Source of the DNA: Mytilus trossulus
Lineage: Eukaryota
DNA: 64,000 bases
Reading direction: 5' to 3'
Assembly (NCBI RefSeq): GCF_036588685.1
Contig: NC_086383.1
Location: 12,400,001-12,464,000, forward strand
The notes beneath the pieces were generated by a model. It was not told the origin of the DNA. It saw only the letters and a list, made by a program, of their open reading frames with translations, and did no database searches. A program made the position numbers and the translations under genes. Positions 12,301-62,763 of this stretch are shown here, piece by piece. Positions within the stretch are counted from its first letter, which is position 1. The number at the start of each line of letters is the position of its first letter.

Positions 12301-15300
12301 AACTTGGAAATTTTGCCAGTATACATTAACATTATTAGCGGCTGCCTTCAATTATAAGGTAAATTCTAAACTAGGGAAGGGATAGTACAGAATTTTAGTA
12401 TATGTTTAAACTTTTAGAAGTTGGAGGCAGATAAACGGGAATTTTCAACACAGTTGTATATATCTTGTGCAAGAAAATTGGTACCGTTATTTTATTACTA
12501 CCACTGGGTTGATGCCTCTGCTGGGGGACTATTAGTCCCCGAGGGTATCACCAGCCCAGTAGCCAGGACTTCGGTACTGGCATGAAAATACGGATTTTTT
12601 GTGTTATTAAAATTTGCTGTTACAAAATATAAGAAATCATTATAAATTAAGGAATGTATCTCCCTCATGCAAAGCTCTGACTCCTTTCACGGATTTGGCC
12701 ATACTTTTTGGACCTTTTGGATTATACCTCTTCATCTTTTATATAAGCTTTGGATTTCAAATATTTTGGCTACGAGCACAACTGAAGAGACATGTATTGT
12801 CGAAATACGCACCTGGTGCAAGAAATATTTTTTATGATCATGAGAAAATCTGTACCGACATTTTTCCAAGTTTGCAGTAACAGAAATGACGCGTGAATAT
12901 AAGAAGTAAATTTTAACATCCTCATCTATTTTCTCATCTAACGTTCTTCTCATGTTTAATTTAATTATTCTAAAAGTGTTGTTCATGTTACGTATATTAA
13001 TATATCAATATTTGCGTCCGACGATCGTAGTATGCAAACAAGAATGAGACTATTATATTTTAAATAGTAGACTATATTTATTTTAATAAAAACAAAATTC
13101 ATTGGGTAAAGTAGCCATACTCTTTTATTTATTTCTAGAATGTAATTCTGTCACAACTCCTAGTAAAGATGGGACAGTTTTAGCAGAAAAAGGAGTTCCT
13201 TTGGTTAATTGCATTGTCTATAGTAAATGAAATGCATCATATAAAGAAACCCACCATGACATTGATTTCCACTGTATCCAGTTGGACAGGAACAAACAAA
13301 ACTACTACCAGCCGGTGCACATTCACCCCCATTCGAACAAGGCGAACTTTTGCATGGTGTGACTACGAAAATAAAAGACAACATTTAGAGTACAATCATA
13401 GTATCAGTATCCTATAATATATCTTTTCTTGTGGTTTTTGTTTTCTACAAATGAATACCTTCTTTTTCGGCAAAACAATATCATGACTTAGAATACCGGC
13501 ATTTGATTTTTTTGGGGGGATATCTATACAGGTTATGTTTTTTTTTATATAAAACGAGGATGTTTCTGTTGAGTTTTTGAAATCGAATTGCATAAAACAT
13601 ACCCTTCCTTTGAACCATGTACTTTATTTTCGAAAGACTGTTTTATTTTGTGTCAAAAGCACCCCATTTCTTATTAGAATGAATATTCCGTGTGTACTCA
13701 ATTTGCTTCAACGAATACTTTATGCCGGTCAACTATATTTTGCTTTAAATCCTTGATAAAATGTTGAACATGCATAAAAAATGTGTTTCGCAAACTTCTA
13801 GCTCATTGTTGATTTTGATTCTATTGGGTTTTTTTCCGAACCAAGTATCAAAAATGTTGGACATATTGTAAAAAATAAACCAAATCATAAGTTTGTCTAA
13901 GGTTTAGTATGTTGGTACTGTTTGTAACCCTGAACTTTGCCCAATTGATTCCAATATCCCATAGTGTGTTTCTTTTTCTATTGGGAATAATCTATTCAAA
14001 TTCAATAAAATTTTCCTAATGCTTTAAAACATGTATCCAGAAAGCAAAATGTTTGCACCCAGACACCCAGACACCAAACATTCATACTGTAAACATAGTT
14101 GGAATTCGTTGCTTATCGCCTAACAAATGTTACAACCTTCACATCTGGATCCATTGTATCCATCACTGCAAGCACAGATAGGTAATTTCCCAAGTTCAGT
14201 GCAAGTTCCATTGTAGAAGCAAGGTTCTTCAGAACACGGCGTTTCTAAAAGAAAACATATATGTTATCACGAGACAATCTAATGATTTTATTAAGCTAAA
14301 TCCTTCTCTTTAGGTGTTTCTCAGACCCTTGCATAATCGGAAGATGGAAATTCTGTTTTTAATCATTTTTTTACAAAATTTTGGTCTCATATCAACAGGT
14401 ATAGATTCAGTGTTAAGACTTCAGTTTTTATGGACAACATACAAAAAACAATACATAGAATAAAGCAAACAATAAATTCACATAGTTAAATATGTGGCTG
14501 CTGTTTTTCCAACTCTTGATCAAGTCAATAACAAAATTGCTAAATAACGAAAAGAATGCAACACTAACAGAATAAAGAAGAACAATCAATGAACAACAAA
14601 AAGACAAATAAATAAGAATCATGAATCCCGAAAAAAACAGAAGCTACGTGTGAGGGAATAAATTACATGTTTCTTGTAAGATACTCGCCGTGAAAACAGT
14701 TTGATATGAAAACAAGCTTTTGGTTTTGAAATTTCCAACATTTGACTGACAAAAAACTCAGCAAATATTTAAGAGACAATTTTTCATTACAAAATTTGTT
14801 TATTTCTCTCATAGTTGTTACTAATATTGTACAAAATTCAATTAAAAAGATCAAATTGTGTTGTCCCAAGAACACTTTTAAAATGTTTAAATCCTTGAAA
14901 AAGCTCCAAATTATCTCCCTTTAGTGAAAAAAACGTCATGTTTTGGGCACTAAACTGAAATATCTATTTTAAGTCATCGGTGACCTTTATTTTTGATTTT
15001 AAAAAAAGCTGTGCTCAAATTAAACTTTTGTAAAATTCAAGCGATATCTGTAATTGAGTTCTTTTTTTTTTCGATATTACATTTTTTCTTTTATTAGTTC
15101 AACAGAAAAAAAGAACCGAAACAAAAATGCATAATTCTTTTGAAGGCAAAATATGAACTTAAATTACGGTGACCCCATATTTTAAAAAAAATTTTTTTTT
15201 AGAATCAGACATGTCAGATAAAGTTTATTTATAAAAAAATCCTATATTTGAACAAACAAAAAAGATTTATACCCGCGATCCCACTTTAAGCAACAGGATA

Positions 15301-16988
15301 CACTAGACCTGACAAAGAAATGATTGTAAAGAAAACTACATTTTTTCTTCCTGCTTCTTTTTTTGTTTTTTGCTGGGGAAGTCCTATATTTCGTAAAGAT
15401 TCTTGATGTAACACGATGTATATTTGTTCTGCAGAGCCAATGTAACAATGCAGCTTTTACTATATTGTTACACTGGCTACAACAATAACCATTTACGTGA
15501 CAATGATAATTTTAAGTGTTCATTGAAAACGATATGATTTAAACGGTAGAGATGTTGTCGTAAACAAGTATTTCATTCAAGGTTAGAACATGATTTGGCC
15601 ATCATATACACGTTTCATTCTCTTCTTCCAATCTCATTTTTTTTACTCAAATAGAGAATAACAGAATAAACCTAGCTGCAATGCATCCTTAAATAAAGTC
15701 AATCTTTAGCTGCTATACTGGGGAATACATCTCTCCAAGCAATCTTTTTATTTAAAGGCAACAGTAGTATACTCTGTTCAAACTCATAAATCCATGGACA
15801 AAAAAAAAATCGGGGTAACAAACTAATACCGAGGGAAACGCATTAAATATAAGAGGAGAACAACGACATAACACCGAAACCCAACACACACAGAAACGGA
15901 CCAAGCATCAGACAAAATCCCACGAGAATAACAAATATAACATCTTAACATCTTTATCAACGATGGTCTTGTGTCAGTTTACTTACCTCATAATTGGTAG
16001 GTGTGTGTTCGACATAAGCCGAGGTCGTGATAACCAAATGTAAGAAAAGTGGAGGACTGCTTTTATCCCAAGTATGTGTCATTTAAGATTTATAAACAAA
16101 GAATGGTAAGATTGGAATATTGTATCCGAGAGACACACTTTCCTGTCGCTATTACATGGTGAACGATAACATCAAAGAGTAAAAGGGTAAATACAAAAAA
16201 GTGAGTCATTATAGATTATACAATCTAGTGAATTAATTTTAAGTAGACGTGTAGATTTTGTTTGTATCTAAAATTTTATTGAAGACTGTCTTTCTAGTTT
16301 TAGTTACGGTACGGTACGGTACAGAAATTTAGGCAAATAACTTTATTTCAAGTGCAAACTCTTATACTTTCATCTAGAAACTGTTGAAATCTTAATTCTA
16401 TTCTTTAAAACAGAGGATGAAATAGGTATGCATGTCATATATGAGCGGTAAACAAATATGTTATCAAAATTGATAAATACCATTGTTTTTCAGCAGCAGA
16501 AACATAGTTGTTCCAGCTATAACACCAACCAAAAGAAATCCAAATATGAAACAAGCCAAATGTTTTCCTCGCCGACTTTTGACAGTTATTTGGTTATAAC
16601 AAATGTTGTTCAAATGTGGTAAAGAGCAAGTAGTAGGAATCACTGCTAAATCATCTATACTCTCGTATATGTCAGAGTTACAAGAAGTTCGGGTTTGTAT
16701 TTCGCTATAATATACATCTTGTTTAACCTCTGCTGTGTTATTATCCAAAATAGTAATTTTTTCAGAAGTTTGAATGTGCTCCTTTGTACCATCTCTTTTT
16801 TCAATTGCTCTACTGGTCGTGTTTTTAACAATAATATCTGATTGTTGATTGTTTTCTAAGGTATCATAACTGCTCCTCGATATTATTAAGTCCGCTGGCA
16901 ATAAAGGTTCATATGTTTTGTTCTCATGAAAAGTTTGTTGTCGTGAACAAGTATTTCCATCAAAGTTCGAACATGATTTGGCCATCAT
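264..16988 (-). CDS. Type II membrane receptor, copy 1 (Tyr-motif tail, TM, >=15 EGF repeats; 3' end beyond left edge, C-type lectin presumed)
   Basis: Exon 1 16988-16481 ends at a phase-1 GT donor. It is followed by 108-nt AG..GT phase 1-1 EGF exons at 14137-14244, 13255-13362, 11087-11194, 10423-10530, 9815-9922, 6840-6947, 5963-6070, 5353-5460, 4474-4581, 3863-3970, 2984-3091, 2374-2481, 1495-1602, 885-992 and 264-371. Exon 1 and first EGF are clearly paralogous to copy 2. Confidence 0.85.
885..6947 (-). repeat. ~1.49-kb tandem array (about 4 units), each with two EGF exons (types A and B) and a Penelope-like 3' tail fragment
   Basis: Type A exons start at 885, 2374, 3863, 5353 and 6840 (periods 1489, 1489, 1490, 1487). 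Type B exons start at 1495, 2984, 4474 and 5963. The introns are nearly identical too. Confidence 0.92.
6840..6947 (-). CDS. EGF exon
   Basis: 108 nt, ag/gt boundaries, 6 Cys. Confidence 0.8.
7214..9586. mobile_element. ~2.4-kb unclassified insertion in an EGF intron
   Basis: The usual ~0.5-kb intron breaks after ...gtttaattgaa and resumes at tttaaaagtgttgtaaat near 9587. Contains an (AAG)n tract at 7912-7943; no convincing ORF. Confidence 0.45.
9815..9922 (-). CDS. EGF exon
   Basis: [35 protein letters not shown], ag/gt boundaries. Confidence 0.8.
10423..10530 (-). CDS. EGF exon
   Basis: 108 nt, ag/gt; 608-bp tandem duplicate of the 9815 exon. Confidence 0.8.
11087..11194 (-). CDS. EGF exon
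   Basis: [35 protein letters not shown], ag/gt boundaries. Confidence 0.8.
11724..11830 (-). pseudogene. Dead EGF exon (pseudo-exon)
   Basis: Homologous to the 1495-type exon, but the acceptor is changed AG->TG, the first Cys codon is TGA instead of TGC, and a 1-nt deletion leaves 107 nt. Confidence 0.8.
12467..12826 (+). mobile_element. Non-LTR retrozyme monomer, subfamily B (~349 nt), with degenerate type I hammerhead at 12776-12819
   Basis: Terminal redundancy gtgcaagaaa at 12467 and 12816. Ribozyme reads CTGAAGA-GACA tgtat TGTC-GAAA; stem III and the cleavage triplet are mutated. Confidence 0.75.
13255..13362 (-). CDS. EGF exon
   Basis: 108 nt, ag/gt boundaries, 6-Cys EGF. Confidence 0.8.
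14137..14244 (-). CDS. Copy 1 first EGF exon ([36 protein letters not shown])
   Basis: 108 nt, ttttag/gt boundaries, 6 Cys; counterpart of 40565-40672. Confidence 0.85.
15530..15640 (-). pseudogene. Fragmentary duplicate of the 5' part of receptor exon 1, inside intron 1
   Basis: gaacatgatttggccatcatatacacg...tcttccaatctca matches 16968-17016. Confidence 0.65.
16481..16988 (-). CDS. Copy 1 exon 1: cytoplasmic tail (YEPL, YDTL, YSEI, YESI) plus signal-anchor TM
   Basis: ATG at 16988 with an in-frame stop upstream; the track's start at 16994 is GTG. Basic RRGKH precedes hydrophobic [23 protein letters not shown]. Donor G|gtattt is phase 1. Confidence 0.85.
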
Positions 16989-17665
16989 ATGCACGTTTTA
17001 TTCTCTTCCAATCTCAAATATATTTTTTTAATCAAATAACATGTAAACTGACACTCAGGATTTAACATGTAGTTAAGTAGTTTTGTCTTAAATGGGAAAT
17101 TTATAGAAATTACATTGTTCAATACAAATATAACAACAACATTTTCTTATTGTTACATAATGAAAATCTATAGTGTAACAATATCACACATGTATGTCTT
17201 AGACGCAGTAAGTTATATACAATTCTTTTACACGCACATGTATTAGGTATGTTACACCCATATTAACATAAAATATCAAAACATCAACGTCAGATAAAGC
17301 CGTTTTCACAATGATCTAAACTCGGTGAGGTGAAAGTGTACTTAACCCCTAAAACATAACTCTAATACATTTCTATTGTAAAAAATAAATGTTAACATTT
17401 CATTCAAATCATTTTTTGACTACATGTAGTTGATGAAGTCATTTTACCGGCATACAAGTAGATAGTATGACGTTGGGTTTTATTATAAATATTCAATGAC
17501 GTTTCATATATTGAATTAAGGTTATCATAATCATATTGTTATCGATACAATTATTTAGTTTTATATTAAGTTGAAAATGAAAATGGGGAATATGTCAAAG
17601 AGACAACAACCCGATAAATATATATGACAAAACCTGAAACATTGCCCATTTAAAATCATGATTAA

Positions 17666-18257: not shown

Positions 18258-18261
18258 TTAA

Positions 18262-19102: not shown

Positions 19103-19360
19103 AAGTAATAAAATTAACGGTACCAATTTTCTTGCACCAGATGCGCATTTTGACAATACATGTCAGTGATCTTCAGTGATGCTCGTGGCCAAAATATTTG
19201 AAATCAAAAGCTTATATAAAAGATGAAGAGCTTTAATCCAAAAGGTCCAAAAAGTATAGCAGTAACAGCAAATTTTAATAACACAAAAAATCCGCATTTT
19301 CATGCCAGTACCGAAGTACTGGCTACTGGGCTGGTGATACCCTCGGAGACTAATAGTCCA
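19103..19360 (-). mobile_element. Retrozyme subfamily B fragment with degenerate hammerhead (19134-19182)
   Basis: Reverse complement of the 12467 element. Minus strand reads GCATCA-CTGAAGA...GACA tgtat TGTC-aAAA-TGCGCATC-TGGTGC. Confidence 0.7.
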
Positions 19361-20902: not shown

Positions 20903-21377
20903 AAATAAACTCGCCATAGATACCAGGACTAAATTTAGTATATACGCCATATCAATGACAATTCATGTCAGCACAACAAGTGCTGACTACTGGTCTTGTG
21001 ATACCCTCGGGGAAATAAATCTCCACCAGCATTGGCATCGACCCAGTGGTTGTAAATAAACTCATCATAGATACCAGGACTAAATTTAGTATATACGCCA
21101 GACGCGCGTTTCGTCTACAAAAGACTCATCAGTGACGCTCGAATCCAAAAAAAGGGTAAAAAAGCAAAATAAAGTACGAAGATGAAGAGCATTGAGGACC
21201 AAAATTCCTAAAAGTTTTGCCAAATGCAGCTAAGGTTATCTATGCCTGAGGTGAAAAAAGCCTTAGTAATTCAAAAAATTCCAAATTTTGTAAACAGTAA
21301 ATTTATAAATATAACCATATAAATGACAATTCATGTCAGCACAAAAAGTGCTGACTACTGGGCTTGTGATACCCTCA
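20903..21377 (-). mobile_element. Retrozyme subfamily C partial multimer (~368-nt period)
   Basis: atgacaattcatgtcagcac repeats at 20955 and 21323; shares conserved blocks with subfamily A. Confidence 0.75.
21095..21138 (-). ncRNA. Minimal type I hammerhead ribozyme (intact core)
   Basis: Minus strand: GCGTCA-CTGATGA-GTCT tttgt AGAC-GAAA-CGCGCGTC^TGGCGT. Confidence 0.85.
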
Positions 21378-24605: not shown

Positions 24606-24859
24606 TTACGTAGAAAAGAATAAAGATTTAGAATATACTAACGGTCTTTCGCATATGAAGCGATAATCAAATGAACATTTGTCATCATTCCATTCATTAT
24701 CTAACTCGTCATCAATGGTCAGACAGTTTTCGTTTCCATCTTGATTATTTGGTTCGTGTACAGTACGTGTATGCCAATCAGTTACTGTAAACCTTTGTCC
24801 ACTAGTTGTCCATAACCACACACCTTCATTTGCCTGATCTGATCCACCTAGCCAAAAAG
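24606..24859 (-). CDS. C-type lectin domain exon 3 (terminal)
   Basis: FWLGGSD...EPN...ENC...WNDDKC...FICE; polypyrimidine-cag acceptor at 24860. Confidence 0.9.
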
Positions 24860-27800
24860 CTGAAAAAAATGAATAGTTAGTAATCAAAAGTACCAGGATT
24901 ATAATTGATAAACAACGTGTTATTCAAGAAAAAACTTTTTATTAAAAGTCATATACAACATATCCAAATTAAACTGCACGCCTCAAATACGTCAAACACC
25001 ATTATTTTCCAAAAGTATACACATTGAAGAGATTCAACATGGTCAAAAGTGATATATGTCAGGGGATTTTTAAAATTGCTGTTAGTGATTTTCCTCATTT
25101 TCCACATTTCATTCTGGTTGACCTACTTTGAAGAACATATTATTTTGAATTTATTTGTAATTTGTATGTACATCATATCTTAAATATTGTCAAATGAGTG
25201 TTGAAGAAAACTAAGAATCAGTCAATTTAAACTTAAATCCACCACTAGGCTTAAATGTAGGTCAAATATTTTTTTATCTTTTTAACATATTTTCAGTCAG
25301 AAATAAGTATGACATATGATCAGCATAAACACCAATACTGCAACCTGATTTCGATTCAAATAACGCTTAAGATTTCAATCAATTATCAATCACTCGAAAT
25401 TGTTTGAAAAATAGATCGAAACTAATGTAACTTGTTTATAAAATTGAGACTAAATATTTACTGTGAGTCTAAATATACCATGTGATATTAAGATGAGATT
25501 GAGTCTTCGAAATAAGTAGTATTTGATGATAATTGATCTGTTTGAAAAACAATTCTGATGTTTTGAAATCTCACTGACCATCGGAAACAAAAAAGATTTG
25601 TATTTTGTTGGGCAGGGATGTTAGAATGTAGAGTCCCATGGTCAGTGAGTTTTCACACGATTGATCGTTCTCTGTATTGTTTCTATAATATTATGTTCCA
25701 CATATTGTAAGTAGAATTTAGAGAATAAAAATAGAAACGTTTGTTTTTATATGGGCTGAGGCTACGTAGAAAGTGTGAGCTAACTTTCTTTGACCCGGCT
25801 ATGTTTTTACACTGGCGGTTGCGATTGATGGTATCTATATAATTTGTATGAGTCTGTATGATTAATGCGACGTTTGTTACAAAGTTGGAAAGGACGTGTT
25901 ATAAGTACATTCTAGTTGTTTGTGTTAGCTTTCACTTCCTCTCCCTCCTTCTAGTAGTAGTTTTGTACGCTTGATACTTATGTAATTATATAACATGTTG
26001 ACATTGATACATATGTTTGATCTTTATTGGATTTTTTTATACTTTCATTATATAAAATGTATTCGATCTTTCGCACAACCTCGTTTGTTGTTTAATTTAG
26101 CTAGTTTAGAAAGTATTTATTTTAGTACGAATGAAATGAGGCACATGTAGAAAATAACATACTTTTGGTAGATCTACTTGATAAATTTATTTATTTCCAT
26201 GTAGATTCATGTTTCAATTTATTTATCAAAGTTGCTCAACTCACACCATTATACGATCGCAAACTAACAGTTCAAAATTAGGTGCCCAAAAAGACCAATA
26301 TCGGCATTTTTTTTGTTTCCAGAGTATAACTTGTGGAACGGTGAATGGATTTCTCTCTAATTTTGTAATAAATAAATATCTAAAAACTGCAATTTTCCAA
26401 TGGTAGGTACATACTTTTTCCATATCTATTGGCGTTTGTCCTAAGAAATGTCATCTCACTTGTTGTTGTTACTTCTGCAAGCATACTACTACGCTGTTGA
26501 CAATAAGACTGGAAAGTAAAATTGGTATAAATTTAAACCGCGATAATGGTTAATAACTGTTTAATTCATTGCATTCAGTAGCAAAAAATAAACCTGGTTT
26601 TTACAGGGGGAAAAATGATAATAACATTTGCCTCGTTTAATGATTTCTTGATTGACAAAATATTTGTTACGTTCGGAGGACGTGTTTTTCAACAGACTGT
26701 CGGCATTCCAATGGGCAAAAAACTGTGCCCCTTTAATTGGCGACTAGTTTCTTTATTATTATGAGGCTGACTCCATGCAAGCACTTCTTAGGAAGAAAGA
26801 TAAGAAGTTAGCAATATCCTGTAACTCTATTTTCCTCTATATAGATGATGTTCTTTCACTAAACAATTCAAAATTTGATGACTATGTGGAACGCATCTAC
26901 TAGGATACGAGAGATACAGTTAATTCGGCTTCATATCTTGACTTACATCTAGGAATTGACAATGAGGGTCGGTTGAAAACAAAACTTTACGACAAAAGGG
27001 ATGAGTTCAGCTTCCCAACTGTGAACTTTCCATTTCTAGGTAGCAACATTCAAGCAGTAAATGCATACAGGGTATATATCTTCCAAATGATACGATATTC
27101 CCGTGCTTGCATTTCCTATTATGATTTTCTTGATAGAGGGTTGCTACTCAAAAGGATGCTATTAAACCAAGAGTTCGAAATGGTAAAGTTTAAATCATCC
27201 CTTCGTATATTTTACGTACGCCATCACGAGTTGGTTGACCGTTATGGAATAAGCGTTTCACAAATGATATCGGATATGTTCCTTACGTCGTAACTACAAT
27301 CCTCTTCCCTTTCATGAAGGTGACCTACTGAATTAGACTATTTACCGGATTTGTAATCACATAAGCAACACGACGGCTGCCACATGTTGAGCAGGATCTG
27401 CTTACGCTTCCGGAGCACCTGAGATCACCCCTAGTTTTTGGTGGGGTTCGTGTTGTTTATTCTTTAGTTTTCCATTTTGTGTCATGTGTACTATTGTTTT
27501 TCTGTTTGTCTTTTTCATTTTTAGCCATGGCGTTGTCAGTTTGTTTTAGATTTATGAGTTTGACTGTCCCTTTGGTATCTTTCGTCCTTCTTTTAATGAC
27601 GTTTCTTTTCATCGAATCAACATTTTGAAGATTTGCATCGTCCTTCCATCTTTTTATAAAGATATGGACCTACCATTAAAAAGTGTCAAATATAGCTGAG
27701 AAAAATTCAGGGTGTTCATAAACACACGAAGACTGCAGTTTACTGCGTTTGTACACCACACTTCGGCTGAAGGGATTCTAAGCAAAGCTATTAGCCTGCT

Positions 27801-39800: not shown

Positions 39801-42800
39801 TGCGATTGTCGAGAGTACTATGTTACTGTAAACCAACTAAATTTCGCGTGCGATTTATTTTGGCGACTTTCGCGAGTAGAAAAATAACGCGAAATTAAAT
39901 CATCGCGAAAAGGAATAACTTGGATCTTTCCCTATCAAACTACATTAAGTAATTAAGAAAATCGCGAAATTAAATCGCCGCGAAGTTGACTAGCTGGGTA
40001 TAAACGCGAAATTAAGTACCCGCGAAAATAAGTTGGTTTACAGTATTCATATGTTAGACATGCCAGGTTGATATAAAACAGTGTGTGTTTTATCCTATCT
40101 ACAGCTGTATTTTACCAAAAAAAGAAAGTTTTTGTTTCTTTCAGTCTGACAATAGCTATTTTTATATATTGACCCAAGTCTCAATAGATCTATGGTTGGG
40201 TTGTTGTCTCTCTGACACATTTCCCATTTCCAATCTCAATTTTAAATTTCTTTTCTATCGATATTGGATATTATCGAACCAAATACTTAAATGTTACACT
40301 TCTTGTAAAATCAATAAACCATAAGTTTGTCGAACGTTATATTTATCTGTGTTGTTTGTGACCCTGACTTTTGCCATATGGATTCCAATCTCACATAGGA
40401 TCTTTCCTTTTCATTTTGACATTATCATTACAGGTTTCATAAATGTTTCTATATGCATTTAGATGTTTATCAAGAGAACGAAATTTAAACACCTGGACAA
40501 CCAGACCTCCAGCCATTAAACAAAGGGAGAAATTCGTCGATTATCTACTAACAAAGTTACTAACCTTCACATCTGGATCCATTGTATCCATCAGTACAAA
40601 CACAGATAGTTAAATTCCTAAGTTCATTGCAAGTTCCATTGTAGAAGCAAGGTTCTCTAGAACACGGTGTTTCTAAAATCAAAAACTGAATTATAATCCT
40701 GGTTACTATTTTACACCACTGGGTCGATGCCACTGCTGGTGGACATTTCGTCCCCGAGGGTATTACCAGCCCAGTAGTCAACACGTCGGTGTTGACATGA
40801 GTATCAATAATGTGGTCATTTTATACAAATGTCCTGTTTACAAAACTTTGAATTTTCGAAAAATTAAGGATTTTCTTATCCTAGGCATAGATTACCGTAG
40901 CCATATTTGGCACAACTTTTTTGGAATTTTGGATTCTAAATGCTCTTCAACTTTTTACTTGTTTGGCTTAATAAATATTTTGATATGAGCGTCACTGATG
41001 AGTCTTATGTAGACGAAAAGCGCGTCTGGTGTACTAACTATTTTATCACGAAATAACTGAATGATATTTTTTCAGGGGCACGGTAGTATTTCCTGGGCCA
41101 TAAGGGATAATGATAGCCTTTTTAGAATTTTAATCACTGTCGAACATTGCAAAAAAAATCTACATCAACATAAAATTTTAGTACTTTCATTATACTATTC
41201 ATGAATGAATTTGAATATGTATCATGACCGTTTTTTTTTTAATCTTCAAAATCCTAAGGCCACTTGTGCTTTAAGGTCTTTTATCATGCAGTGAATACAA
41301 ATTTGAAAAATTGTAATAATTCATTTTCACCCGTATGTTAAATTATTTCATATTTTTCTACACCTGATTACTCAGTTTTCTGGAAAGTATGTTCAGTTGA
41401 TACTGTATTTTTTGTCCAATCACACTGTTCAGTTACCTTGAATTAATTAGGGTACACATAAGAGCAACTTGTAATCAGGAATGCAAACACTACCATGCTA
41501 CCTTCAATTCAATTCATAGCATTCGTAATAATAATATTTACGTTATATTTTCCGTACTAAATACGAAGAACCGTTATTATTTCGGAAAATGTTTCAATTA
41601 CCTTAGGGTAATCAATCAACACTGTTTGTGTTTTATTTAGTTAAATATATGCTTAGTTTTCATGGTTCAAATAAGATTTATATTTTTCGAACAAAACTTC
41701 CAAAGCATGTTTTCTTAGATTCTATAAATCATGATATTTCGTTGCTGGACAAAAAATAATGCAAAAGTTATACACTTTTTCAAAATTAATATTTTTTACT
41801 GTTTTTTCGTCACAGAAACTATCTGAGTCAAAGAATGTTGTATGCTCTACAAGGAAGAAGAAAAGTATTGCGTGCCAGCTTATGAAATAGTTATTTACAC
41901 GTTAGATTTTCTGCGTTTGCAATTCGGATAAAGTTTATCACTATGTTTCCTACTTAAAAGAACATTTAAAGGAGGGGTGAAAGATTCAAAAGGGACAGTC
42001 AATTTAACAAGATTAGGGCAACACTAGAATATTTAAAAGTTATAGATGTATAGAGAGAAAACGAATCCGGGAACAAACTTAAACCGATGGAAACATTACA
42101 ACTATTAGAGTAAAATATCGTTACAACAGAAACATTGAAGTGCCAAAAAACTATAACATAAACGACAAAAACGATATACATAGAAACGGAGTATTTGATA
42201 ACTACGCCACACATAAAGATGTATTTTTATAATGTATATAAAGTCTTGAAATTTATACAATTGTTTGAAACGAGATCGTTAATTTAAAATTTATTTTCAC
42301 AATACTTCTCCAAATAATTATCATCAGAATGAATGTATTGAAAGGCCATTTTAAAATAATGCTGTGACGACTTCATCATTATTTAGACTAATACAATACT
42401 CTATTTATTGAAAAAAAAATTGACTGTAGTGACTAATAAGACATCTGTGAAACATACAGAAAATATATAATTGAAACCACAAACGATAAGACAAAACACA
42501 ATATCAAACCCAACCCACAATAGAAACATCGTTTCTAAAAACAAAAATATTAATATATAAGTCACTGATAGTAGTATACAGACATTTCCTAAATTCATGT
42601 TGATATATTAATTAGATAATTTGTTAACATTACATACTTAAAAACAAAAATATATATTACTATATGATTATGCAAGTAGATGAAAAGAAATCAGTAGCAG
42701 TGTGTTAAAATGTAAAATAAATTCTGCACTAAAGAAACGTTTAGCTATAGTTATAGTTTACATGTTTAATAACAATGTAGATGTATGTGTTTTAATTTCA

Positions 42801-44884: not shown

Positions 44885-45700
44885 TGTAGGAAATGGTGGA
44901 TTTAACCTGGTTTTATAGCTAGCCGAGGTTGGCAATGTATTTTTATGGTTACCAATCTGTTTTATCATCCTCCTCGCTATGTGTTATTTTACTTATTGTA
45001 ATGATTGTTCCATCAAGAGAGCTTGTGCCGTTCACCTTGGGTATCACCAGCCCAGTAGTCAGCACTTCGGAATATCATTTATATATAATTTTTGTAAATT
45101 TACTGTTTGCAAAAGTATGAATTATTCGAAATACTGAGGATTTTTTTACTCAAAGAGTCGATTCACAAAGCTGACCTCCGAGGAAAATTCAAAGCGGACA
45201 GTCCCTAATCAAATGGCAAAATCAAATGATAAATCACATCAAACGAATGGACAATACATGTCATATTCATAACTTGATAGGGCACTTTCAAATGTAGGAA
45301 ATCGTGGATTTAACCTGGTTTTATAGCTAGCCGAGGTTTGCAATGTATTTTTATGGTTACCAATCTGTTCTATCATCCTCCTCGCTATGTGTTATTTTAC
45401 TAATTGTAATGATTGTTCCATCAAGAGAGCTTGTGCCGTTCACCTTGGGTATCACCAGCCCAGTAGTCAGCACTTCGGAATATCATTTATATATAATTTT
45501 TGTAAATTTACTGTTTGCAAAAGTATGAATTATTCGAAATACTGAGGATTTTTTTACTCAAAGAGTCGATTCACAAAGCTGACCTCCGAGGAAAATTCAA
45601 AGCGGACAGTCCCTAATCAAATGGCAAAATCAAATGATAAATCACATCAAACGAATGGACAATAAATGTCATATTCATGACTTGGTAGGGCACTTTCAAA
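44885..45700. repeat. 408-bp tandem duplication bounded by SINE-like repeat copies
   Basis: atgtatttttatggttacc occurs at 44935 and 45343; units are near-identical. Confidence 0.85.
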
Positions 45701-45763
45701 TGTAGAAAATGGTGAATTGAATCTGGTTTTATAGTGCAGTATGACAGTCTGATTCAAGTCGCA

Positions 45764-45950
45764 TCCAAGTCATAGATTATCTTAGCCGTAATTGGCTCAA
45801 CTTCTTGAAAAAAATTAGGCCCTCAATGCTCTTCAACTTTGGACTTGTTTGGCTTTCTAAATATTTTGATCTGAGCGTCACTGATGAGTCTTATGTAGAC
45901 GAAACGCGGGTCTGACGTTTTAAATTATAAGCCTGGTACCTTTGATAACC
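45764..45950 (+). mobile_element. Retrozyme subfamily A fragment with hammerhead at 45875-45918
   Basis: GCGTCA-CTGATGA-GTCT tatgt AGAC-GAAA-CGCGGGTC-TGACGT. Confidence 0.78.
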
Positions 45951-46099
45951 ATGGGTTTATGTGCATATGCAACAAAGGACACTCTTCAGCATTGTAGACA
46001 AGAATAGAGTTTATGACAAAATTCTCTGTTTTTGTTCATCTTGTATTGATGATCCTTTGGTCTGTTCTCTCTATCTTCTAACGTTTTTTTCATAAAACA

Positions 46100-50300: not shown

Positions 50301-50419
50301 TTACTAAACGCGTAAGGAACTATCATACCAAAAAGGCTTTAAAATGAAAAGTCAAATTAAATCAATATAATTTTGCCTTACTGAGATGGAACCTTGGTTT
50401 CTTAATAATTTCATACTTT

Positions 50420-50780: not shown

Positions 50781-50888
50781 AGATATGAGAATAATTGGAG
50801 TTACCGACAACTAGTTGAAAGCCAGCATGTAGATCATTTTGCTCCTTGTAGTAAATAGTTATCAAAGATACCAGGACTACAATTTAGT

Positions 50889-50932
50889 ACGCCAGACGCG
50901 CGTTTCGTCTACATAAGACTCATCAGTGACGC
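50889..50932 (-). ncRNA. Minimal type I hammerhead ribozyme (intact) in retrozyme fragment 50851-50968
   Basis: Exact reverse complement of the subfamily A hammerhead. Confidence 0.85.
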
Positions 50933-51130
50933 TCATATCAAAATATTTATAAAGCAAAAGTAAAAGTTTCTCCAGCAATTTTCAATATAAAAGAACTTTC
51001 TTTATCTTACTTTTTTCTAACTGTTATTTACTACACTGTGCAATGATTAATGTTAACTATCTTTCCTCGTGTTATCCACCGACAACAATTGTCAGATGCA
51101 TTTTTTGTCCTTCCCTTTTCGTCAAAGTGT

Positions 51131-53048: not shown

Positions 53049-53212
53049 TTTATAACACACTTTGACCGTTATACTTCCTTACCGAGGTCAATTATAAGCT
53101 ATTATAATAAACAAAACAATGTGATTACTGTAATAAATCTTGCGATCACAATATTTGCGCTTTGTTTTAGAGTAAATAATATTTGTCTTAATAGACAATT
53201 AATGAGTCACAA

Positions 53213-53603
53213 ATGAGTCTTATGTAGACGAAACGCGTACTAAATTATAATCCTGATACATTTGATTACTATTTACACTACTGGGTCGATGCCACTGATG
53301 GTGGACGAGAGCATCAGCAGTCAAGTAGTCAACACTTCGGTGTTGACATGAATATCAATAATGTGGTAATTTTTAATAAATTTTCTGTTTACAAAACTTT
53401 AAATTTTTCGAAAAACTTAGGATTTTCTTATCCCAGACATAGATTTACTTAGCCGTATTTAGTACAACGTTTTGGAATTTTGATCCTCAATGCTTTTCAA
53501 CTTTGTACTTGTTTGGCTTTATGAATATTTTGATATTAGCGTCACTGATGAGTCTTATGTAGACGAAACGCGCGTCTGGCGTACTAAACTATAATCCTAG
53601 TAC
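53213..53603 (+). mobile_element. Retrozyme subfamily A: partial hammerhead, monomer, then intact hammerhead (53539-53582)
   Basis: atgagtcttatgtagacgaaacgcg occurs at 53213 and 53548. Confidence 0.82.
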
Positions 53604-54139
53604 AAGTAGAAGGCTTGTTATAATTCGTTATTCTTGATAGGTATGTTATAACTATCATGGTGGTTATACAACAATATATCTATATTCAGATTAGATAAAC
53701 AGCAGTATTGTTTATATTTTGGAAGCAAAATCGTTCTGTTTTTTTCTTCTTAAGTACAAGTTACGCTATAATGTCACTTGTAAACCAAGTTCATATACTT
53801 TTGTTATTTGTGCTTCATTTTGTAAGAATTAAATATACAAATGAATCCGATAGTGCTCAACCAATGTTCAAATCTCGTTAATCGATTAAGTCAATCAATT
53901 GACAACTCATTAACAAGAAACGAAAAAGACAAGAAGACACACATACGAAGTATATGAAATACAACATGTAAAATAAAAACTGACCAACACAGACCAAGTC
54001 TTGTTAGTCATTAAGATCAGCTTTCTTGTTGCGGATCATAAATGCAAAGAGCTACGTATTCTACTGGTAAACTTAATGGCATTTCAGATGACAAATCTGT
54101 ATTTGATTTGGTTATCAAGAAACATTTGCGTGTAGACAT

Positions 54140-55420: not shown

Positions 55421-55986
55421 CGGACAAGTTTACCTTCGATTAATTCCTGTTGGTCACGTAGATTCTAAAGTATTATGTATCGTTGGTTTTCAAATATATG
55501 GTTTAGAGCGTTCCTGGTGAAGTTTAATCCAAGAGCAACGCTTAAAATGTACCTAATTGGTTCAGTTTTATTATAATTATTTACTACTTAATACAGAAAC
55601 TTTTCTCAATTGCTACAACAGAAACATATTTTTATAGTTTGCGTTCTCTATGCATGTAATAAATAATCTACATGTATACATGACCGTGCATGTTAAATAA
55701 TTATCATCATTTATTTTTAAGAAAATAAAAATCCTTTTTTATTATATTTATTTGTTTCTCTTTTATTATTTGTAACTGCTAATATAAATGACTTTTGGTT
55801 TGATGAGTATTTGTTTACTCCTTGGTTTTAAAAGTTATTGTCTTATATCTGAAGGAGACGTAACATTATAATGTAACTCCTTTCTGTAGAGCAATTCTTA
55901 ACTTATAAAGCTTCTTATGTATATTGTCATGTCTAACGTCAGTTTCTTCATAATGACATTTGTGATTTATTTTCAAATAAAAGTAT

Positions 55987-57906
55987 TTAAATAGTTTCAC
56001 AAAGTGATGCCTTCCCTGAAATCAAACAGGTAACGATAAACTTGTTGCTGCCTGGTGCAAAACGTATTGTCCATGGACATTCAATTCCCACAGTTGTAGC
56101 CGGAATTATTCTAATAAGATTTCCTTCGTTTGTTATTTGATGGATATTTGCAGAATTATATCCAGCGATGTATATATTACCAACCATGTCTACTCCAATC
56201 CCTCTTGGACCTGAAAGTTTGGTATTTGTATAGGTGAATCTAGTCGTACCACCAACTGAATAATTGACTGAATTTTTATCGGTACCATATATATAGTCCT
56301 GTTCTCCTAGTGATAATACTAGTTCGAGTTACTTACTGTGTGTCTTTCATTTATTTTTTCTCCAGATGGAAGGTTTACCCATGTAAGTGTGTCATAAGAA
56401 CCAATTATTAATTGTTTTTCGTTGACACAGGATAATCCATATACTTTTATAAATGAAAATGTCAAAGTTTGTAACAATGTCATTTTATCACGATCCACAA
56501 TATATACTGCCTTCCTGGTAGATGAAACGGCAACTTTGTATTGTACTATCGTGGCAATATCCTGAGGTGCACTTGGAAGCAACGATTGTGATAGTAAGCT
56601 TTTTCCATCGAATTTGTATTTACTACTTTGTTCTGTTGACGAATTGTAAATAGTAAATAGTTCTGTATGAAAATACCACTAAAAGTACCGCTACCTTTGC
56701 ATACGTCGATTACTTGCAGAATTTTGATATTTCCGGTTCGGAAGTCTATGTTGGATATCCCAAGCATACCGGTCAACTTGCTATCAGGTGATTCGTCAAC
56801 TTTAATACATCCAAAAGTATTTGTATTCTTCAAATCAGCAATAGGAGATGAAGGACTGAAAACAACCGATATTGTTTTCCTATTTTTCTTTAAATCTGTC
56901 ATTTCTCGTTCTAGATCAGATATTTTCGGTTCGATTTTGTTAATTTCCATCATACATTGCTGCTCGGATCCGTGGTTAAGAACACTATCGAACATGTCTT
57001 TCCAATTTTTAACGGCACTTTTGTACGATAAACAAACGTCTATTTCGTCTTTTAATTTGTTACCAACTTGCTTCTTGGTTGAGGTCAACTCTACTTTCAT
57101 GGTTTCTTCCATTTTGTCAATATGCTTTAAAATTTCTGTTTTCATATTAGAGACGCTTGTCTCAATCTCTTCTATTGAATTCTCTACATCGGATAAATTT
57201 GTGTTCCGATTTTCAATAATTTCATTAAGCTGGTCAGAGTGTTCTGTCAGTTTCTCAGATAAGTCATTAGCCGCTTTTGACTGTTTGATACCGTAAGCGG
57301 CTTCTTGTATTAAAGTAACATTTTCACATTTAAGGTGTGAAAGTGTAGCGCACGACGTACAACAAGGTTGAGAATGATCCAAACAATAAAATTCTATGAT
57401 CTTTCCTGGATGATCTTCACAGCTTTGTACCTCACATACTTTGAAAGGTGTTATACCTGACTGCATTTTTTGAAGGTTTAGAAGTTTATGTCTTGCTGAT
57501 ATCTTAACGTTTTTGTGACATTTTTCGCACTGTTCACAGAATGCTTCCTTGCAAATAGTACACCAAGATTTTGCTTTTGTACTTTCTTTGTTTAATTGGC
57601 ACGAGTCGCACAATTTTACTGCCTTTTGTATTGCTTGTTTATCCAACATTGATGCTACAAAACAATTCGTAGGCAACGTGGTCGCCCATAATTCTGGCCT
57701 TTCTAATGTTTCCAATGCTGATACAATTTTTCGACAAACAGGACAATAATCCCTCGGTTATCTTTCCCTTTTCCACAGAAGACACAATGTAGGTATTAAT
57801 ACGTATCAAGACATGGTAGAAACTTCGGAACTTTAAAAGTTTCTAAACAAATCGTGCAAGTTAATAAGTCTTCGAAATGTTCAGTATCCTCAGTGGGTGT
57901 CGCCAT
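55987..57906 (-). pseudogene. TRIM pseudogene
   Basis: MATPTEDTEHFEDLLTCTIC start; deletions within the RING; frameshift near 56600; split over three track ORFs. Confidence 0.85.
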
Positions 57907-58289
57907 TATCAAAATAAACTATTAATACTTCCTTGTGTGCGTGTAGATATAGTTTAGTGTATTTACCTAGTTGTGACAGGTAAATTAGATAATCAATCTT
58001 TTTTAAGGGTATCGTTAACAACCTTCTTTTCAATACACAAGTTCTAACTAAACATGATTAATTGCAAGAGATTCACAAGATAAATTCACTATTTTGTCAA
58101 TGTTGAATTTCATCTGAACATTTGCATGACTCGTATTAAATGTTTTTTTTTTTTTTCTTTTAATGTTTATGACCCCTTCTGTGGCCTGTGAAGTATGAAC
58201 TTTTCAAACTGCAATAGTATTAAAACGGCAAAGATTATTAATAATAGAGATGGGCCATTTTGTCCATATACCAAGGGGAAACTTCGTTC

Positions 58290-58440
58290 AAAGCTCAAAC
58301 AAATCAAACGAATGGATAACAACTGTCATATTCCTGACTTGGTACAGGCATTTTCTCATGTAGAAAATGGTGGATTGAACCTGGTTCTATAGCTAGCTTA
58401 ACCTCTCACTTGTATGACAGTCGTATCAAATTCCATTACA
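58290..58440 (+). repeat. Dispersed SINE-like repeat
   Basis: tgtcatattcctgacttggtacaggcatttt...gctagc...cctctcacttgta; relatives at ~23720, 44770, 45180 and 45590. Confidence 0.6.
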
Positions 58441-58546
58441 AATACATTATTTTTTCTCAATTGCTCAACAGAAACAAATATTTGATATTTTGCGTTCTCA
58501 ATGTAATTTATTATTTATACATGATAGTTCAGCTTTAATAATTAAC

Positions 58547-58985
58547 TGGTCATATCCACTTGTATTTTTTGTCTATCTGACGAGTTAAGCCTTTTTCAAC
58601 TGATTTTTATAGTTCGTTCTTATGTTGTACTGTTATACCACTGTCCCAGGTTAGGGGAGGGTTGGGATCCCGCTAACATGTTTAACCCCGCCACATTATT
58701 TATGTATGTGCCTGTCCCAAGTTAGGAGCCTGTAATTCAGTGGTTGTCGTTTGTTTAGGTGTTACATATTTGTTTTTCGTTCATTTTTTTACATAAATAA
58801 GGCCGTTAGTTTTCTCGTTTGAATTGTTTTACATTGTCTTAGCGGGGCCTTTTATAGCTGACTTTGCGGTATGGGCTCATTGTTGAAGACCGTACGGTGA
58901 CCTATAGTTGTTAATGTTTGTGTCATTTTGGTCCATTGTGGATAGCTGTCTCATTGACAATCATACCACATCTTCTTTTTTATAT
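58547..58985 (+). mobile_element. SINE-like element (possible Nin/Deu-type core)
   Basis: gtgcctgtcccaag..aggagcctgtaattcag core and caatcataccacatcttc tail (also near 49790); absent from the paralogous spacer near 55690. Confidence 0.55.
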
Positions 58986-59541
58986 CGTCTTTTTTTTTTG
59001 ATATAAAATTAAGATCTTTTTATATTTTAAGGACACATACCATCATAATGTGACTTCTTTGCTGTACAGTAATTCTTAACTTATATAGCTCCTAATGTAT
59101 ATTTTCATGTTTCATGTAAGTTTCTTCATGTTGACATTTGTGATTTCTTTTCAAAAAAATAGTATTCAAATAATTTCACATATTGAGGCCTTCCCAGAAG
59201 TCAAACATGTAACGATAAAGATGTTGCTTCTTGGTGCAAAACGTATTGTCCATGGACTCTCAATTCCTACGGTTGTAGCCGCAATTAGTCTTATTAAATT
59301 TCCTGCGTTTGTTAGTTGGTGGATATTTGCAGAATTATATCCAACGATGTATATATTACCAACAATGTCTACTCCAATCCCTCTTGGAACTGCAAGTTAG
59401 TTGTTTGTATAGGAAAACTTTGTCACATAACCGACTGAATAATTGACTGAATTCATACTGGTACCATAAATATATATATATATATATATATATGTGTGTA
59501 TGGTGATAAAACAAAGTTAGAGTTACTACTAGTCTGTCTTC

Positions 59542-59928
59542 CTGGCGTATAAAATTATAATCCTGGTACCTTTGATAACTATTTACACAACTGGGTCGAT
59601 GCCACTGCTGGTGGAAGTTTCGTCCCCGAGGGTATCACCAGCCCAGTAGTCAGCACTTCGGTGTTGACATGAATATCAATTATGTGGTCATTTTTATAAA
59701 TTACCTGTTACAAAACTTTGAATTAATCGAAAAACTGAGGATTTTCTTATCCCAGGAATAGATTACCTTAGCCGTATTTGGCACAACTTTTTGGAATTTT
59801 GGGTCCTCAATGCTCTACAACTTTATACTTCTTTGGCTTTACAACGATTTTGATCTGAGCGTCACTGATGAGTCTTATGTAGACGAAACGCGCGTCTGGC
59901 GTATAAAATTATAATCCTGGTACCTTTG
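59542..59928 (+). mobile_element. Retrozyme subfamily A full monomer (354 nt) plus ~32 nt terminal redundancy
   Basis: ctggcgtataaaattataatcctggtacctttg occurs at 59542 and 59896. Confidence 0.88.
59859..59902 (+). ncRNA. Minimal type I hammerhead ribozyme (intact)
   Basis: GCGTCA-CTGATGA-GTCT tatgt AGAC-GAAA-CGCGCGTC^TGGCGT. Confidence 0.88.
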
Positions 59929-60642
59929 TGACTAATTCCGTCCATTTGTTCTACAGATGGAATGACTATCCATGTAAGTTTGTTACTAGAACCAATTATT
60001 AATTGTGTCTCGTTGACACAGGATAATCCATATACTTGTATAAATGGAAATGTCGAAGTTTGTAACAATGTCATTGTATCACTATCAACAATATATACTG
60101 GTAGACGAAACGGCAACTTTGAATTGTATTATGGTAGAAATATCCTCGGGTGAATATGGACGCAACAATTGTGATAGTAATATGACATTCAATATTATTA
60201 AGTTTAGTAATCACTCTTTTTCAGTTTTAGTTTCTTATCGCTATCTGGTCTCAAATGGGAGTCATATTCGGCACTATCTGAACGCTGTTTTACCAAACAT
60301 AACATAACTTTAGTTACACATGTTACAGTGTCACACCAAACACTTCAGGTAGCTTACTTTTTATTATAAACATTCGTAAAGTATTATGTGATATAGAATA
60401 AAGAAAAATAGATTTTTAATTAAAATCAATTTAAGTAAGCATATAATTCTTTAAATGTCCGAATATATTTTAATGTGTCGTTTCTTTATATGAACGCATA
60501 TGTAAATTTCCTTGACTTTTTCTATTATACCATGAGTTTGTATCGTTTAAATAAATCTCATATTTGATACACGAATCCTGCGTATGGTACTTAGGGTGGT
60601 AGGGTGGTAAGTTGATAAAAGAGATGCAGTATCCATGAGATT

Positions 60643-62589
60643 TTAAACAAATTCACATATTGTTGCTTTGCCAGTACTCGAACATGTGACAACCATTTTG
60701 TTACTATTTGTTGCAAAACGAATTGTCCATGGATTCACAATTCCTATGGTTGAAGCCGGAATTTTTCTTATTAACTCTCCTCCATTCGTTATTTGGTGGA
60801 TATATCTAGAACTATATGATGCAATATATAAATTGCCCATATAGTCTACTCCTATCCCTCTAGGGTAAGATAAATCAGAGTTGGTATAGGTAAACTTTTT
60901 CGTGTTATCGACTACATAATCGACAGAATTGGAACTGTTGGCAAACATGTAATCGGTTTGTGATAACGATAACACAAAGAACGATTGACTACTGGTCGTC
61001 CTTTTGTTAATTGTTTGTCCCGATGAAACGTTTATCCATGTAAGTGTGTAACTATGACAAGCGATAAATGTGTCTTCATTAACAAAGCTTATTCCATACA
61101 CTGGTATACCTGGTAAATTCAAGGTTTGTAACAATACCATCTTATTACTATCTACTACACATACTCCTTGCCCATAAGATGATACTGCAACTTTGAAGTG
61201 TGTTACCGCAGCAATGTCCTCCGGTGAACCTGGAAGGGCCAATTCTGATAGCAAACTTTGTCCATCACTGTTGTATTTCACTACTTTCTTTTTGTTATGA
61301 ATTGTAAAAAGTAGAAAGTTGTGTATAAATATTCCAGACGTTGTTCCGGTACCATTGCACACGTCGATAACTTGTAGAATGTTAATATTTCCAGTGCGGA
61401 AGTCGACTTTGTCTACTTTCATCTCAAGGTTAAAATTCAAAAAACTAACAGCGGATTTGTCAACTTTAATTCTTTCAAACGTCTGGGCATTTTTGATAAA
61501 ATCTGCAATAGGGGGAGAAGGGCTAAAAACAACTGAAACACTCTTTATTGTTTTCACCAAATCTTCAATTTCTTGTTCAAGTTCTGAGATTTTAGATTCG
61601 ATTTTATTAATTTCCATCAGACATTGCTCATCGGACCCATGTTCTAGAACACTGTCTATCACTGTTTTCCATTTTTTAACAGCGCCTCTGTATGATGAAA
61701 GAACACCAACTTCGTCTTTTACTTCTATTTCAACTTGCTTCTTGGTTGAGGTCAACTCGGTTATCAGAGTTTCTTCTATTCGATCTATATGCCTTGAAAT
61801 TTCAGTTTTTATATTAGCCACTGTTGTCCTAATTTCTCCTGTTGAATTCTCAACATCAGCTAAATTCGTATTTCGATCTTCAATAATTTCACCTAACTGA
61901 ATCACGTGCTCTGTTAGTTTTTGTGATAAACCAGACGCTTTCGGTGAATGTTTGATACCGGAAGCGGCTTTTTGAATTGAAGTGACATTTTCACATTTAC
62001 GGTGAGTTAGTGTACCGCACGACGTGCAACAAGGTTGTGAATGATCCAAACAATAAAATTCGACAATCTTTCCTGGATGATCTTCACAGTTTTGTACCTC
62101 GCATACTTTGAATGGTGTACCGCCGGACTGCATTTCCTGAATGCTGAAAAGTTTATGCCGTGCTGATATCTTTAAGTTTTTATGATATTTCTCACATTGG
62201 TCACAGAAAGCCTCTTCACAAATCGGACACCAGCTTTTCGCTTTTGTACTTTCTTTGTTAATGACACAAGAATCGCACATTTTTTCTGCCTTTTGTATTG
62301 CTAGTTTATCTAACATTGAGGTAACAAAATGATTGCTTGGGAGCGATTGCGCCCATAATTCTGGCTTTTCTAATTTGTCTCCTCCTGATACGATTTTTCG
62401 ACATACAGGACATGTAAATCCCTCGGTTATCTTTCCCTTTGCCACAGATGACACAATATAGGTATTAATACACGAATCACAGAAGGTATGAAGACATGGT
62501 AGATACTTCGGAAGTTTGAATATTTCCAAACAAATCGTGCAAGTTAACAAATCATCGAAATGTTCAGTATCCTTAGTGGGTGTCGCCAT
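60643..62589 (-). CDS. Intronless TRIM E3 ligase (RING, B-box x2, coiled coil, NHL-like beta-propeller; TRIM2/3/56/71-like), 648 aa
   Basis: CTIC..PCLHTFCDSC..CPVC RING; CDSC..CPIC..FCDQC..H..H; CEDH..CLDH..CCTSC..H; C-terminal YPRGIGVD..GNLYIA. ATG at 62589; the track's start is TTG. Confidence 0.93.
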   Translation of the reverse strand: MATPTKDTEHFDDLLTCTICLEIFKLPKYLPCLHTFCDSCINTYIVSSVAKGKITEGFTCPVCRKIVSGGDKLEKPELWAQSLPSNHFVTSMLDKLAIQKAEKMCDSCVINKESTKAKSWCPICEEAFCDQCEKYHKNLKISARHKLFSIQEMQSGGTPFKVCEVQNCEDHPGKIVEFYCLDHSQPCCTSCGTLTHRKCENVTSIQKAASGIKHSPKASGLSQKLTEHVIQLGEIIEDRNTNLADVENSTGEIRTTVANIKTEISRHIDRIEETLITELTSTKKQVEIEVKDEVGVLSSYRGAVKKWKTVIDSVLEHGSDEQCLMEINKIESKISELEQEIEDLVKTIKSVSVVFSPSPPIADFIKNAQTFERIKVDKSAVSFLNFNLEMKVDKVDFRTGNINILQVIDVCNGTGTTSGIFIHNFLLFTIHNKKKVVKYNSDGQSLLSELALPGSPEDIAAVTHFKVAVSSYGQGVCVVDSNKMVLLQTLNLPGIPVYGISFVNEDTFIACHSYTLTWINVSSGQTINKRTTSSQSFFVLSLSQTDYMFANSSNSVDYVVDNTKKFTYTNSDLSYPRGIGVDYMGNLYIASYSSRYIHQITNGGELIRKIPASTIGIVNPWTIRFATNSNKMVVTCSSTGKATICEFV

Positions 62590-62687
62590 TATCAAAATAA
62601 ACTTTGACCGTTAATATACTTCCTTGTGTGCGTGTATTTATAGTCATTGACTTGGTGTATTTACCTTGTTGCAAAAAGTAGATTGGA

Positions 62688-62763
62688 TAAATAGTTATCA
62701 AAAATACCAGGATTATAATTTTATACGCCAGACGCGCGTTTCGTCTACATAAGACTCATCAGT
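62688..62763 (-). mobile_element. Short retrozyme insertion carrying a hammerhead core (62725-62763, stem I truncated)
   Basis: Absent from the paralogous site near 54188; TAAA on both sides. Confidence 0.78.

Follow-up and report, generated by a model that had tools for sequence, protein, structure and literature searches.

Hammerhead retrozymes of Mytilus trossulus and their likely copying by a Naiad-type Penelope-like reverse transcriptase

The window analyzed here is a 64-kb stretch of the Mytilus trossulus genome (NC_086383.1 12,400,001-12,464,000, assembly GCF_036588685.1) that holds repeats with type I hammerhead ribozymes (HHRs). We conclude, with a probability of about 0.7 for both statements together, that these repeats are scattered, mostly truncated or mutated insertions of the known mussel non-long-terminal-repeat (non-LTR) retrozyme, and that its subfamilies A, B and C are likely copied by the reverse transcriptase (RT) of Naiad, a Penelope-like element (PLE), starting just before a stem-loop present in both. 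A sequence-only reading of the window had named PLEs as mobilizers, and the stem-loop and insertion-end register common to A, B, C and Naiad-1 speak for this.

Insertion ends and the stem-loop shared with Naiad-1

The 3′ ends of the insertions are fixed relative to the predicted cut site of the ribozyme. For subfamily A, 38 of 58 terminal ends lie at +41 to +43 after this site, for B 10 of 12 at +33 to +36, and for C 22 of 24 at +45 to +51. At the sampled loci 92 of 150 A tail sites run on into the next unit, which argues that the fixed end is not a hard RNA end. PLE ends are reported to carry a 30-40-bp tail (PMC8557442). The 5′ ends are at scattered positions: 1 of 60 falls at the cut site, and 10 of 60 reach the edge of the reference. 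A clustering of 5′ ends at the cut site was dropped on this count, the apparent cluster being an artefact of using a monomer as query. Empty paralogous sites were found for two of the ten window insertions. The one for the 62688 insertion lies near 54185 and shows no target duplication, and the one for the 59543 insertion is ambiguous.

Just past the fixed end, A, B and C carry a 58-nt bulged stem-loop followed by a second hairpin. The stem-loop has folding z-scores of −3.9 to −4.6, and 5 of 31 pairs show two-sided change among the three subfamilies. It recurs in Naiad-1, a PLE family that has an N-terminal GIY-YIG domain together with CxC and DKA motifs and for which a first look gave 38,614 candidates in the genome; there a Naiad-specific C-G to U-A swap retains the pairing. 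Such two-sided, pairing-preserving changes point to an RNA structure. In A, B, C and Naiad-1 the insertion ends 3-8 nt before the helix, despite differing tails.

In two full-length copies of Naiad-1, which lie on different contigs, the 3′ end is followed by the stem-loop, the 5′ untranslated region (UTR) and the open reading frame (ORF), in this order. With a 171-nt query spanning the end, stem-loop and 5′ UTR, all 40 scored candidates of 1,497 matched at 99-100%, although these 40 were the best matches and are biased toward whole ones; some junction candidates lie in 3.3-3.4-kb tandems. Junctions of Naiad with the stem-loop at two loci (L186, L199) had been taken for Naiad inserted into a retrozyme, which was wrong for L199, a Naiad start. 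No hammerhead was found in the four long Naiad-1 copies scanned.

Likeness of the retrozyme tails to PLE 3′ ends was considered and is weak. Among 35 pairs compared at four lengths, three gave p values near 0.01, one of them with an unfavoured PLE. Against Naiad-1 the A tail aligned at 14 of 22 positions and ranked top, and the B and C tails did not.

The flanks were scored only as (TA)n or not. Runs of (TA)4 or more occurred at 1 of 75 A ends, 0 of 14 B ends, 0 of 50 C ends and 0 of 55 Naiad-1 ends, which places A, B, C and Naiad-1 in the same non-(TA)n class; across four Naiad-type families (TA)n was found at 1 of 102 ends. The usual Naiad target is reported to be (TA)n (PMC8557442), unlike that of Naiad-1 here. 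Two further retrozyme forms, D and E, have 548-578-nt units and occur outside the window (loci L131-L160, L266-L272); (TA)n was present at 26 of 30 of their ends, as it was in two PLEs with minimal hammerhead ribozymes (min-HHRs), at 3 of 3 ends in one and at 3 of 7 in the other. We had considered that D and E end in the TGGTAYC tail of the A/B/C type; this failed, since they end at unit position 370 in (TA)n (22 of 54 listed alignment ends). Their unit from about 163 to 370 can be aligned with a min-HHR PLE, in its terminal repeat, and this alignment stops at the shared end, with scores of 45-56 in four comparisons and 0 of 100 mononucleotide shuffles in each; a third variant and the other PLEs did not reach significance. 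D and E thus resemble, in sequence, a (TA)n-targeting PLE with a C-terminal GIY-YIG domain rather than Naiad.

These observations suggest the following mechanism for A, B and C. Transcripts of arrays would cleave mainly as double hammerheads through the palindrome of helix III. The Naiad protein would bind the stem-loop, nick AT-rich DNA and initiate 34-50 nt downstream of the cut site, and its RT would copy upstream, round a circle or along an uncut multimer. Continued copying would yield arrays, and falling off would yield fragments like the window copies.

Three composite insertions were also found: a PLE end joined to an A array (L189:1769-1900), a B tail joined to a truncated A (L052:1237-1940) and a Naiad-2 end joined to a truncated C (L162:700-1150). 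They may reflect template switching or insertion of the elements at each other's ends.

Retrozyme copies in the window and the genome

A 14-base core pattern had 36,743 matches in the 1.3-Gb assembly and 1 for the reversed control, so the hammerheads are not chance occurrences. Strict core matches number 7 in the window against 1.8 expected at the genome mean, a local excess. Outside the window A, B and C all form tandem arrays with a period of 350-366 nt, at loci taken as best BLAST matches. The three subfamilies distinguished in the sequence-only reading were borne out when 146 distinct cut-to-cut monomers fell into clusters A (63), B (62) and C (21). Units are 353-356 nt in A (mainly 354-355), mostly 350-351 nt in B and 363-366 nt in C; identity is 95-96% within subfamilies, 83% between A and C, 68% between A and B and 66% between B and C. 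The A and C ribozymes are identical except for loop 2. The units are non-coding, with a GC content of 36-39%, and rich in T runs; a resemblance to RNA polymerase III A and B boxes was dropped. One type I hammerhead per unit, tandem units of 350-366 nt, lack of coding sequence, a GC content below 50% and transcription together agree with the earlier classification as non-LTR retrozymes.

D and E were found with a pattern demanding changes at two positions of helix III (2,047 matches). Of the first 100 of these listed, counted by hand, 48 carry ATCCGGAT (D) and 32 carry ATCTAGAT (E). They share with B only the ribozyme region, where D is identical to B at 34 of 37 nt. Another repeat with a core-like motif (L253-L262) was discarded: it is dispersed, its flanks are a repeated short motif and it has no hammerhead stems.

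Window copies were delimited by mapping natural monomers onto the window:

12467..12825 (+): subfamily B, one whole unit, 95% identical to an array copy, 10-nt terminal redundancy
12503..12560 (+): Naiad-shared stem-loop inside this B copy, two substitutions
12776-12819 (+): B hammerhead, damaged; stem I, loop 3 and position 16.1 changed
19104..19360 (−): subfamily B fragment with internal deletion, ending near the usual B tail point (+36)
19134-19182 (−): B hammerhead, broken; 5-nt insertion after the core, G12 to A
20903..21376 (−): subfamily C copy, 5′-truncated, with a second tail after the stem-loop, ending at the usual C point
20989-21047 (−): stem-loop in the C copy
21095-21138 (−): C hammerhead, intact, predicted cut after 21101
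24878..24906 (−): subfamily A tail-only fragment (unit 11-39), absent from the earlier list
26904..27596 (+): Naiad-1 3′ fragment (RT C-terminus and 3′ end), unlinked to the retrozyme copies
40689..41037 (+): subfamily A near-whole unit, 88%
40989-41032 (+): A hammerhead, damaged; a broken pair in helix III and an altered 3′ arm of stem I
45039..45571 (+): two decayed A body fragments (unit 88-223, 79%) within a 408-bp tandem duplication
45763..45952 (+): 5′-truncated A copy, tail to +40
45875-45918 (+): A hammerhead, damaged; helix III loop and stem I changed
50851..50965 (−): 5′-truncated A copy, tail to +44
50889-50932 (−): A hammerhead, intact, predicted cut after 50895
53206..53604 (+): A copy, one unit (86%), with a partial hammerhead at its start (53206-53237)
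53539-53582 (+): A hammerhead, intact, predicted cut after 53576
59543..59937 (+): A copy, 95%, one whole unit followed by a 41-nt tail
59590-59647 (+): stem-loop in this A copy
59859-59902 (+): A hammerhead, intact, predicted cut after 59896
62688..62763 (−): 76-nt A insertion; hammerhead (62725) without its 5′ stem I arm owing to truncation, then a 43-nt tail

By motif scan and alignment all ten positions at which hammerheads had been noted hold hammerhead-derived sequence. The description as elements of about 350 nt applies to the near-whole units at four of the ten (12467, 40689, 53235 and 59543); the C copy forms a permuted piece of 474 nt, and the remaining ones are fragments of 76-257 nt. 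Intact hammerheads at 21095(−), 50889(−), 53539(+) and 59859(+) match the type I model RF00163 of Rfam with 32.5-33 bits and E values near 3e-4 (A 33, C 32.5 bits). These scores lie just below the gathering score of 34 bits. Weak Rfam matches occur at 62728 and 45872, and B, D and E loci gave no RF00163 match at E ≤ 1. The hammerheads at six of the ten positions are damaged, including both B copies. The B ribozyme quoted previously is whole in neither of these, being a composite of two broken copies; the quoted motif is nonetheless the commonest B form in 60 loci from elsewhere in the genome (168 matches of the two top B variants, overlapping loci being counted more than once). No tandem with two intact ribozymes was found among the window copies, no PLE ORF was found adjoining them, and stop-to-stop frames over them are few and not common to the copies. 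With at most one intact ribozyme each, the window copies lack release of circles by double cleavage and are probably dead ends.

The element, with its two ribozyme families, is already known. M. galloprovincialis is described as having type I HHRs of two families, about 5,000 in all, within 350-390-bp repeats; these repeats self-cleave and accumulate as circles, RtcB ligates them better than they ligate themselves, and PLEs were named as candidate mobilizers (PMC7229834). Type I hammerheads, repeat length, two ribozyme families and low GC content are common to both species; the copy number reported there compares with 36,743 core matches here. By eye, subfamily C matches a 375-nt M. galloprovincialis retrozyme (PMC4918200, Additional file 11). 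The subfamily structure, which the earlier reading suggested might be new, is largely published: two ribozyme families and a C-like sequence are in print. Three subfamilies are not described in the text of PMC7229834, which also mentions no 550-580-nt D/E forms, no fixed 3′ end, no stem-loop and no named partner. A and B may already appear in its supplement.

Ribozyme architecture, transcripts and alternative explanations

The earlier label "minimal" does not apply to these ribozymes. A helix I of 6 bp, a helix II of 4 bp and a helix III of 1-2 bp with a palindromic loop make up the canonical metazoan type I hammerhead (PMC4209133), and this is the architecture found here. Min-HHRs of metazoan PLEs share type I topology, palindromic helix III positions and a proposed dimer action, as reported in PMC4209133; the mussel motifs differ from them in having no extra base before helix II, a 4-bp helix II, a 2-bp helix III, a 4-nt loop and a location outside a pseudo-LTR (pLTR). 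The min-HHR traits of an extra base between 9 and 10.1, a long helix II and no helix III stem were not found in the window motifs. Mussel HHRs are also reported to lack most of the conserved loop 1-loop 2 tertiary nucleotides (PMC7229834). True min-HHRs occur elsewhere in the genome (1,033 pattern matches, control 104), in at least three families located 3′ of C-terminal GIY-YIG PLE ORFs (L223-L252); two of these families have two alternative 3′ ends about 95 nt apart.

The compensatory changes noted between A/C and B were confirmed. In 25 rows of A to E, picked for an intact core and hence 100% paired by design, two-sided change was found at 7 of 14 pairs and in all three helices; these are about seven events in four or five lineages, not a probability. 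The helix III palindrome occurs in four sequences, ACGCGCGT, ATGCGCAT, ATCCGGAT and ATCTAGAT, with D and E keeping the palindrome but using different inner bases. Of the three changed palindrome pairs two consist of bases of the 4-nt loop in the monomer and can therefore pair only between two ribozymes. The computed dimer duplex has an energy of −7.4 to −13.3 kcal/mol, compared with +2.4 to +4.8 kcal/mol for the 2-bp hairpin. The palindrome covariation favours, as far as sequence can tell, cleavage as a dimer.

The statement that these ribozymes act as dimers is thereby supported in part, since a cloned single mussel repeat is reported to cleave at about 0.1 per min (PMC7229834). This report fits an alternative in which monomers are aided by an extended helix I, which is predicted to be able to form, while the palindrome is kept by DNA processes, namely template switching at a short hairpin and CpG decay on both strands; the change from D to E is indeed a CG to TA swap. 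The swap from B to D, however, is a transversion pair outside CpG that has gone to fixation in a large family, to which 48 of the first 100 among the 2,047 matches belong, and the 135 double changes confined to the inner two positions are scattered, none of their forms being dominant. In addition, the active monomer fold lies 3.8-7.4 kcal/mol above the best fold for two window cores. We regard this alternative as doubtful, while granting it some weight.

Transcription was followed in four raw-read RNA runs (X21-X24) from two studies with the same species label as the genome. Each direction had a depth of about 230-3,200 over 59542-59928; the flanks were near 0 and the neighbouring TRIM gene was at 0-10. 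The reads are mostly 90-95% alike to the window copy, so they stem from other copies; at the family level transcription was found in all four runs, with depths of hundreds to thousands. B depth was roughly one third to one sixth of that of A/C, and loose ends of the D/E type appeared in X22. In X21-X23 73-90% of the reads are from the ribozyme strand, a direction that rests on a few reads of a TRIM paralogue and the usual library chemistry. In X21 117 molecules ended at 59543, but this was not reproduced at internal cut sites and likely is an edge effect rather than a set of cleaved 5′ ends.

Several observations weigh against copying of retrozyme circles by Naiad. No pile-up of read ends was found at internal cut sites, which the reads cross, as expected for ligated circles or for uncut RNA. 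Back-joints of 354 and 350 nt occur in all four runs, but tandem arrays would produce an identical joint. In every run hundreds of reads pass the tail into mixed flanks, and X24 is strand-symmetric. On the genomic side, 5′ ends at the cut site are scarce, so that neither these nor the read ends give a sign of cleavage in vivo; the window B copy at 12467 and three A copies stop short of the usual point, and the tail likeness to PLE 3′ ends is weak after multiple comparisons. The covariation comes from few lineages, dimers may not be required given single-repeat cleavage, and the partner may be a relative of Naiad-1, as starts were examined in the Naiad-1 family alone.

The read-through into unrelated flanks, the lack of ends at cut sites and the symmetry of X24 would all suit a family of mainly satellite-like DNA that lacks a circle cycle, its RNA being passenger transcripts of tens of thousands of copies. 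The sense excess in the three other runs, the circles published for M. galloprovincialis from northern blots and RT-PCR, and the retrotransposition marks of fixed 3′ and scattered 5′ ends make this very improbable. It is also unlikely, though less so, that the same retrozyme is copied by another PLE, with the stem-loop a relic of descent or a DNA-level promoter from the Naiad start and the fixed end set by an RNA 3′ end at a U-rich tract or by endonuclease preference. The stem-loop does stand at the start of the Naiad 5′ region, a possible place for an internal promoter, all ends are T-rich, and there are several further PLE families, both Naiad and C-terminal GIY-YIG ones; comparison of the A tail with one non-(TA)n family, mH3, gave p 0.008-0.025. 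Yet two-sided change with pairing retained argues for an RNA structure, the distance from end to helix is equal in four lineages with differing tails, and the 92 of 150 A tails that continue into the next unit speak against a hard RNA end. Copying of A, B and C by Naiad from the shared stem-loop is accordingly the explanation that we prefer.

Neighbouring sequence and significance

A young LTR retrotransposon occupies 28856-34942, with 603-bp LTRs (28856-29458, 34340-34942) that are 99.8% identical and a single 1,574-codon frame with a SCAN domain and the integrase before RT and RNase H. We take this domain order to be Gmr1-like. The element sits between inverted repeats that include Naiad pieces. 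A C-type lectin domain exon lies at 24606-24923(−); the A tail-only fragment at 24878-24906 is in its stop-to-stop frame, just upstream of the domain match. The minus strand of 51224-62610 holds a cluster of single-exon TRIM genes with RING, B-box, coiled-coil and NHL-like domains; the one at 60643-62610 is a single open frame and the other two are split across frames. Tandem duplications at 200-13500 have periods of 1,489 bp and about 610 bp, with four or five units that are 97-100% identical, and related pieces occur at 37800-39200. Paralogous exons at 16464-16997 and 43893-44462 end in a predicted membrane-spanning stretch and have no Pfam match.

Two described systems come close to the copying proposed here. 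In Poseidon_Ac (PMC11167929) the RT likewise initiates internally, at an RNA stem-loop that lies downstream of the hammerhead; its start sites are marked by the genomic ends, and RNA-seq ends at the cut site are absent. Xenopus retrozymes (bioRxiv 10.64898/2026.07.22.740005) are likewise non-autonomous PLE derivatives whose solo copies are the offspring of arrays. They derive from PLE pLTRs and show homology to PLE terminal repeats, whereas A, B and C share only the stem-loop with the hammerhead-free Naiad; D and E fit the Xenopus model better. Compared with the Naiad elements of PMC8557442, A, B and C have in common with Naiad-1 the 58-nt stem-loop, the end register and the non-(TA)n flanks, and differ by encoding no protein and carrying a hammerhead. 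No work linking retrozymes to Naiad or to internal initiation was found in the literature covered, most subscription journals being outside that coverage. What the present analysis adds is a specific candidate partner and predicted start site, the palindrome series and the contrast with D and E.

A broader reading, to which we give slightly better than even odds, is that mussel retrozymes are modular parasites in which a dimer-cleaving, circle-making hammerhead is combined with a PLE initiation module. For A, B and C this module would be the start stem-loop of the hammerhead-free Naiad, and for D and E the terminal repeat of a C-terminal GIY-YIG element that targets (TA)n. The four palindrome sequences form a natural set for comparing dimer with monomer cleavage. 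Which retrotransposon moves animal retrozymes, and how their circles are primed, are questions that are addressed here with a named enzyme, an RNA element and a predicted start site. If the proposal is true, the 58-nt stem-loop would serve as a portable signal, allowing the Naiad RT to start inside any RNA, even a circle without a 3′ end.

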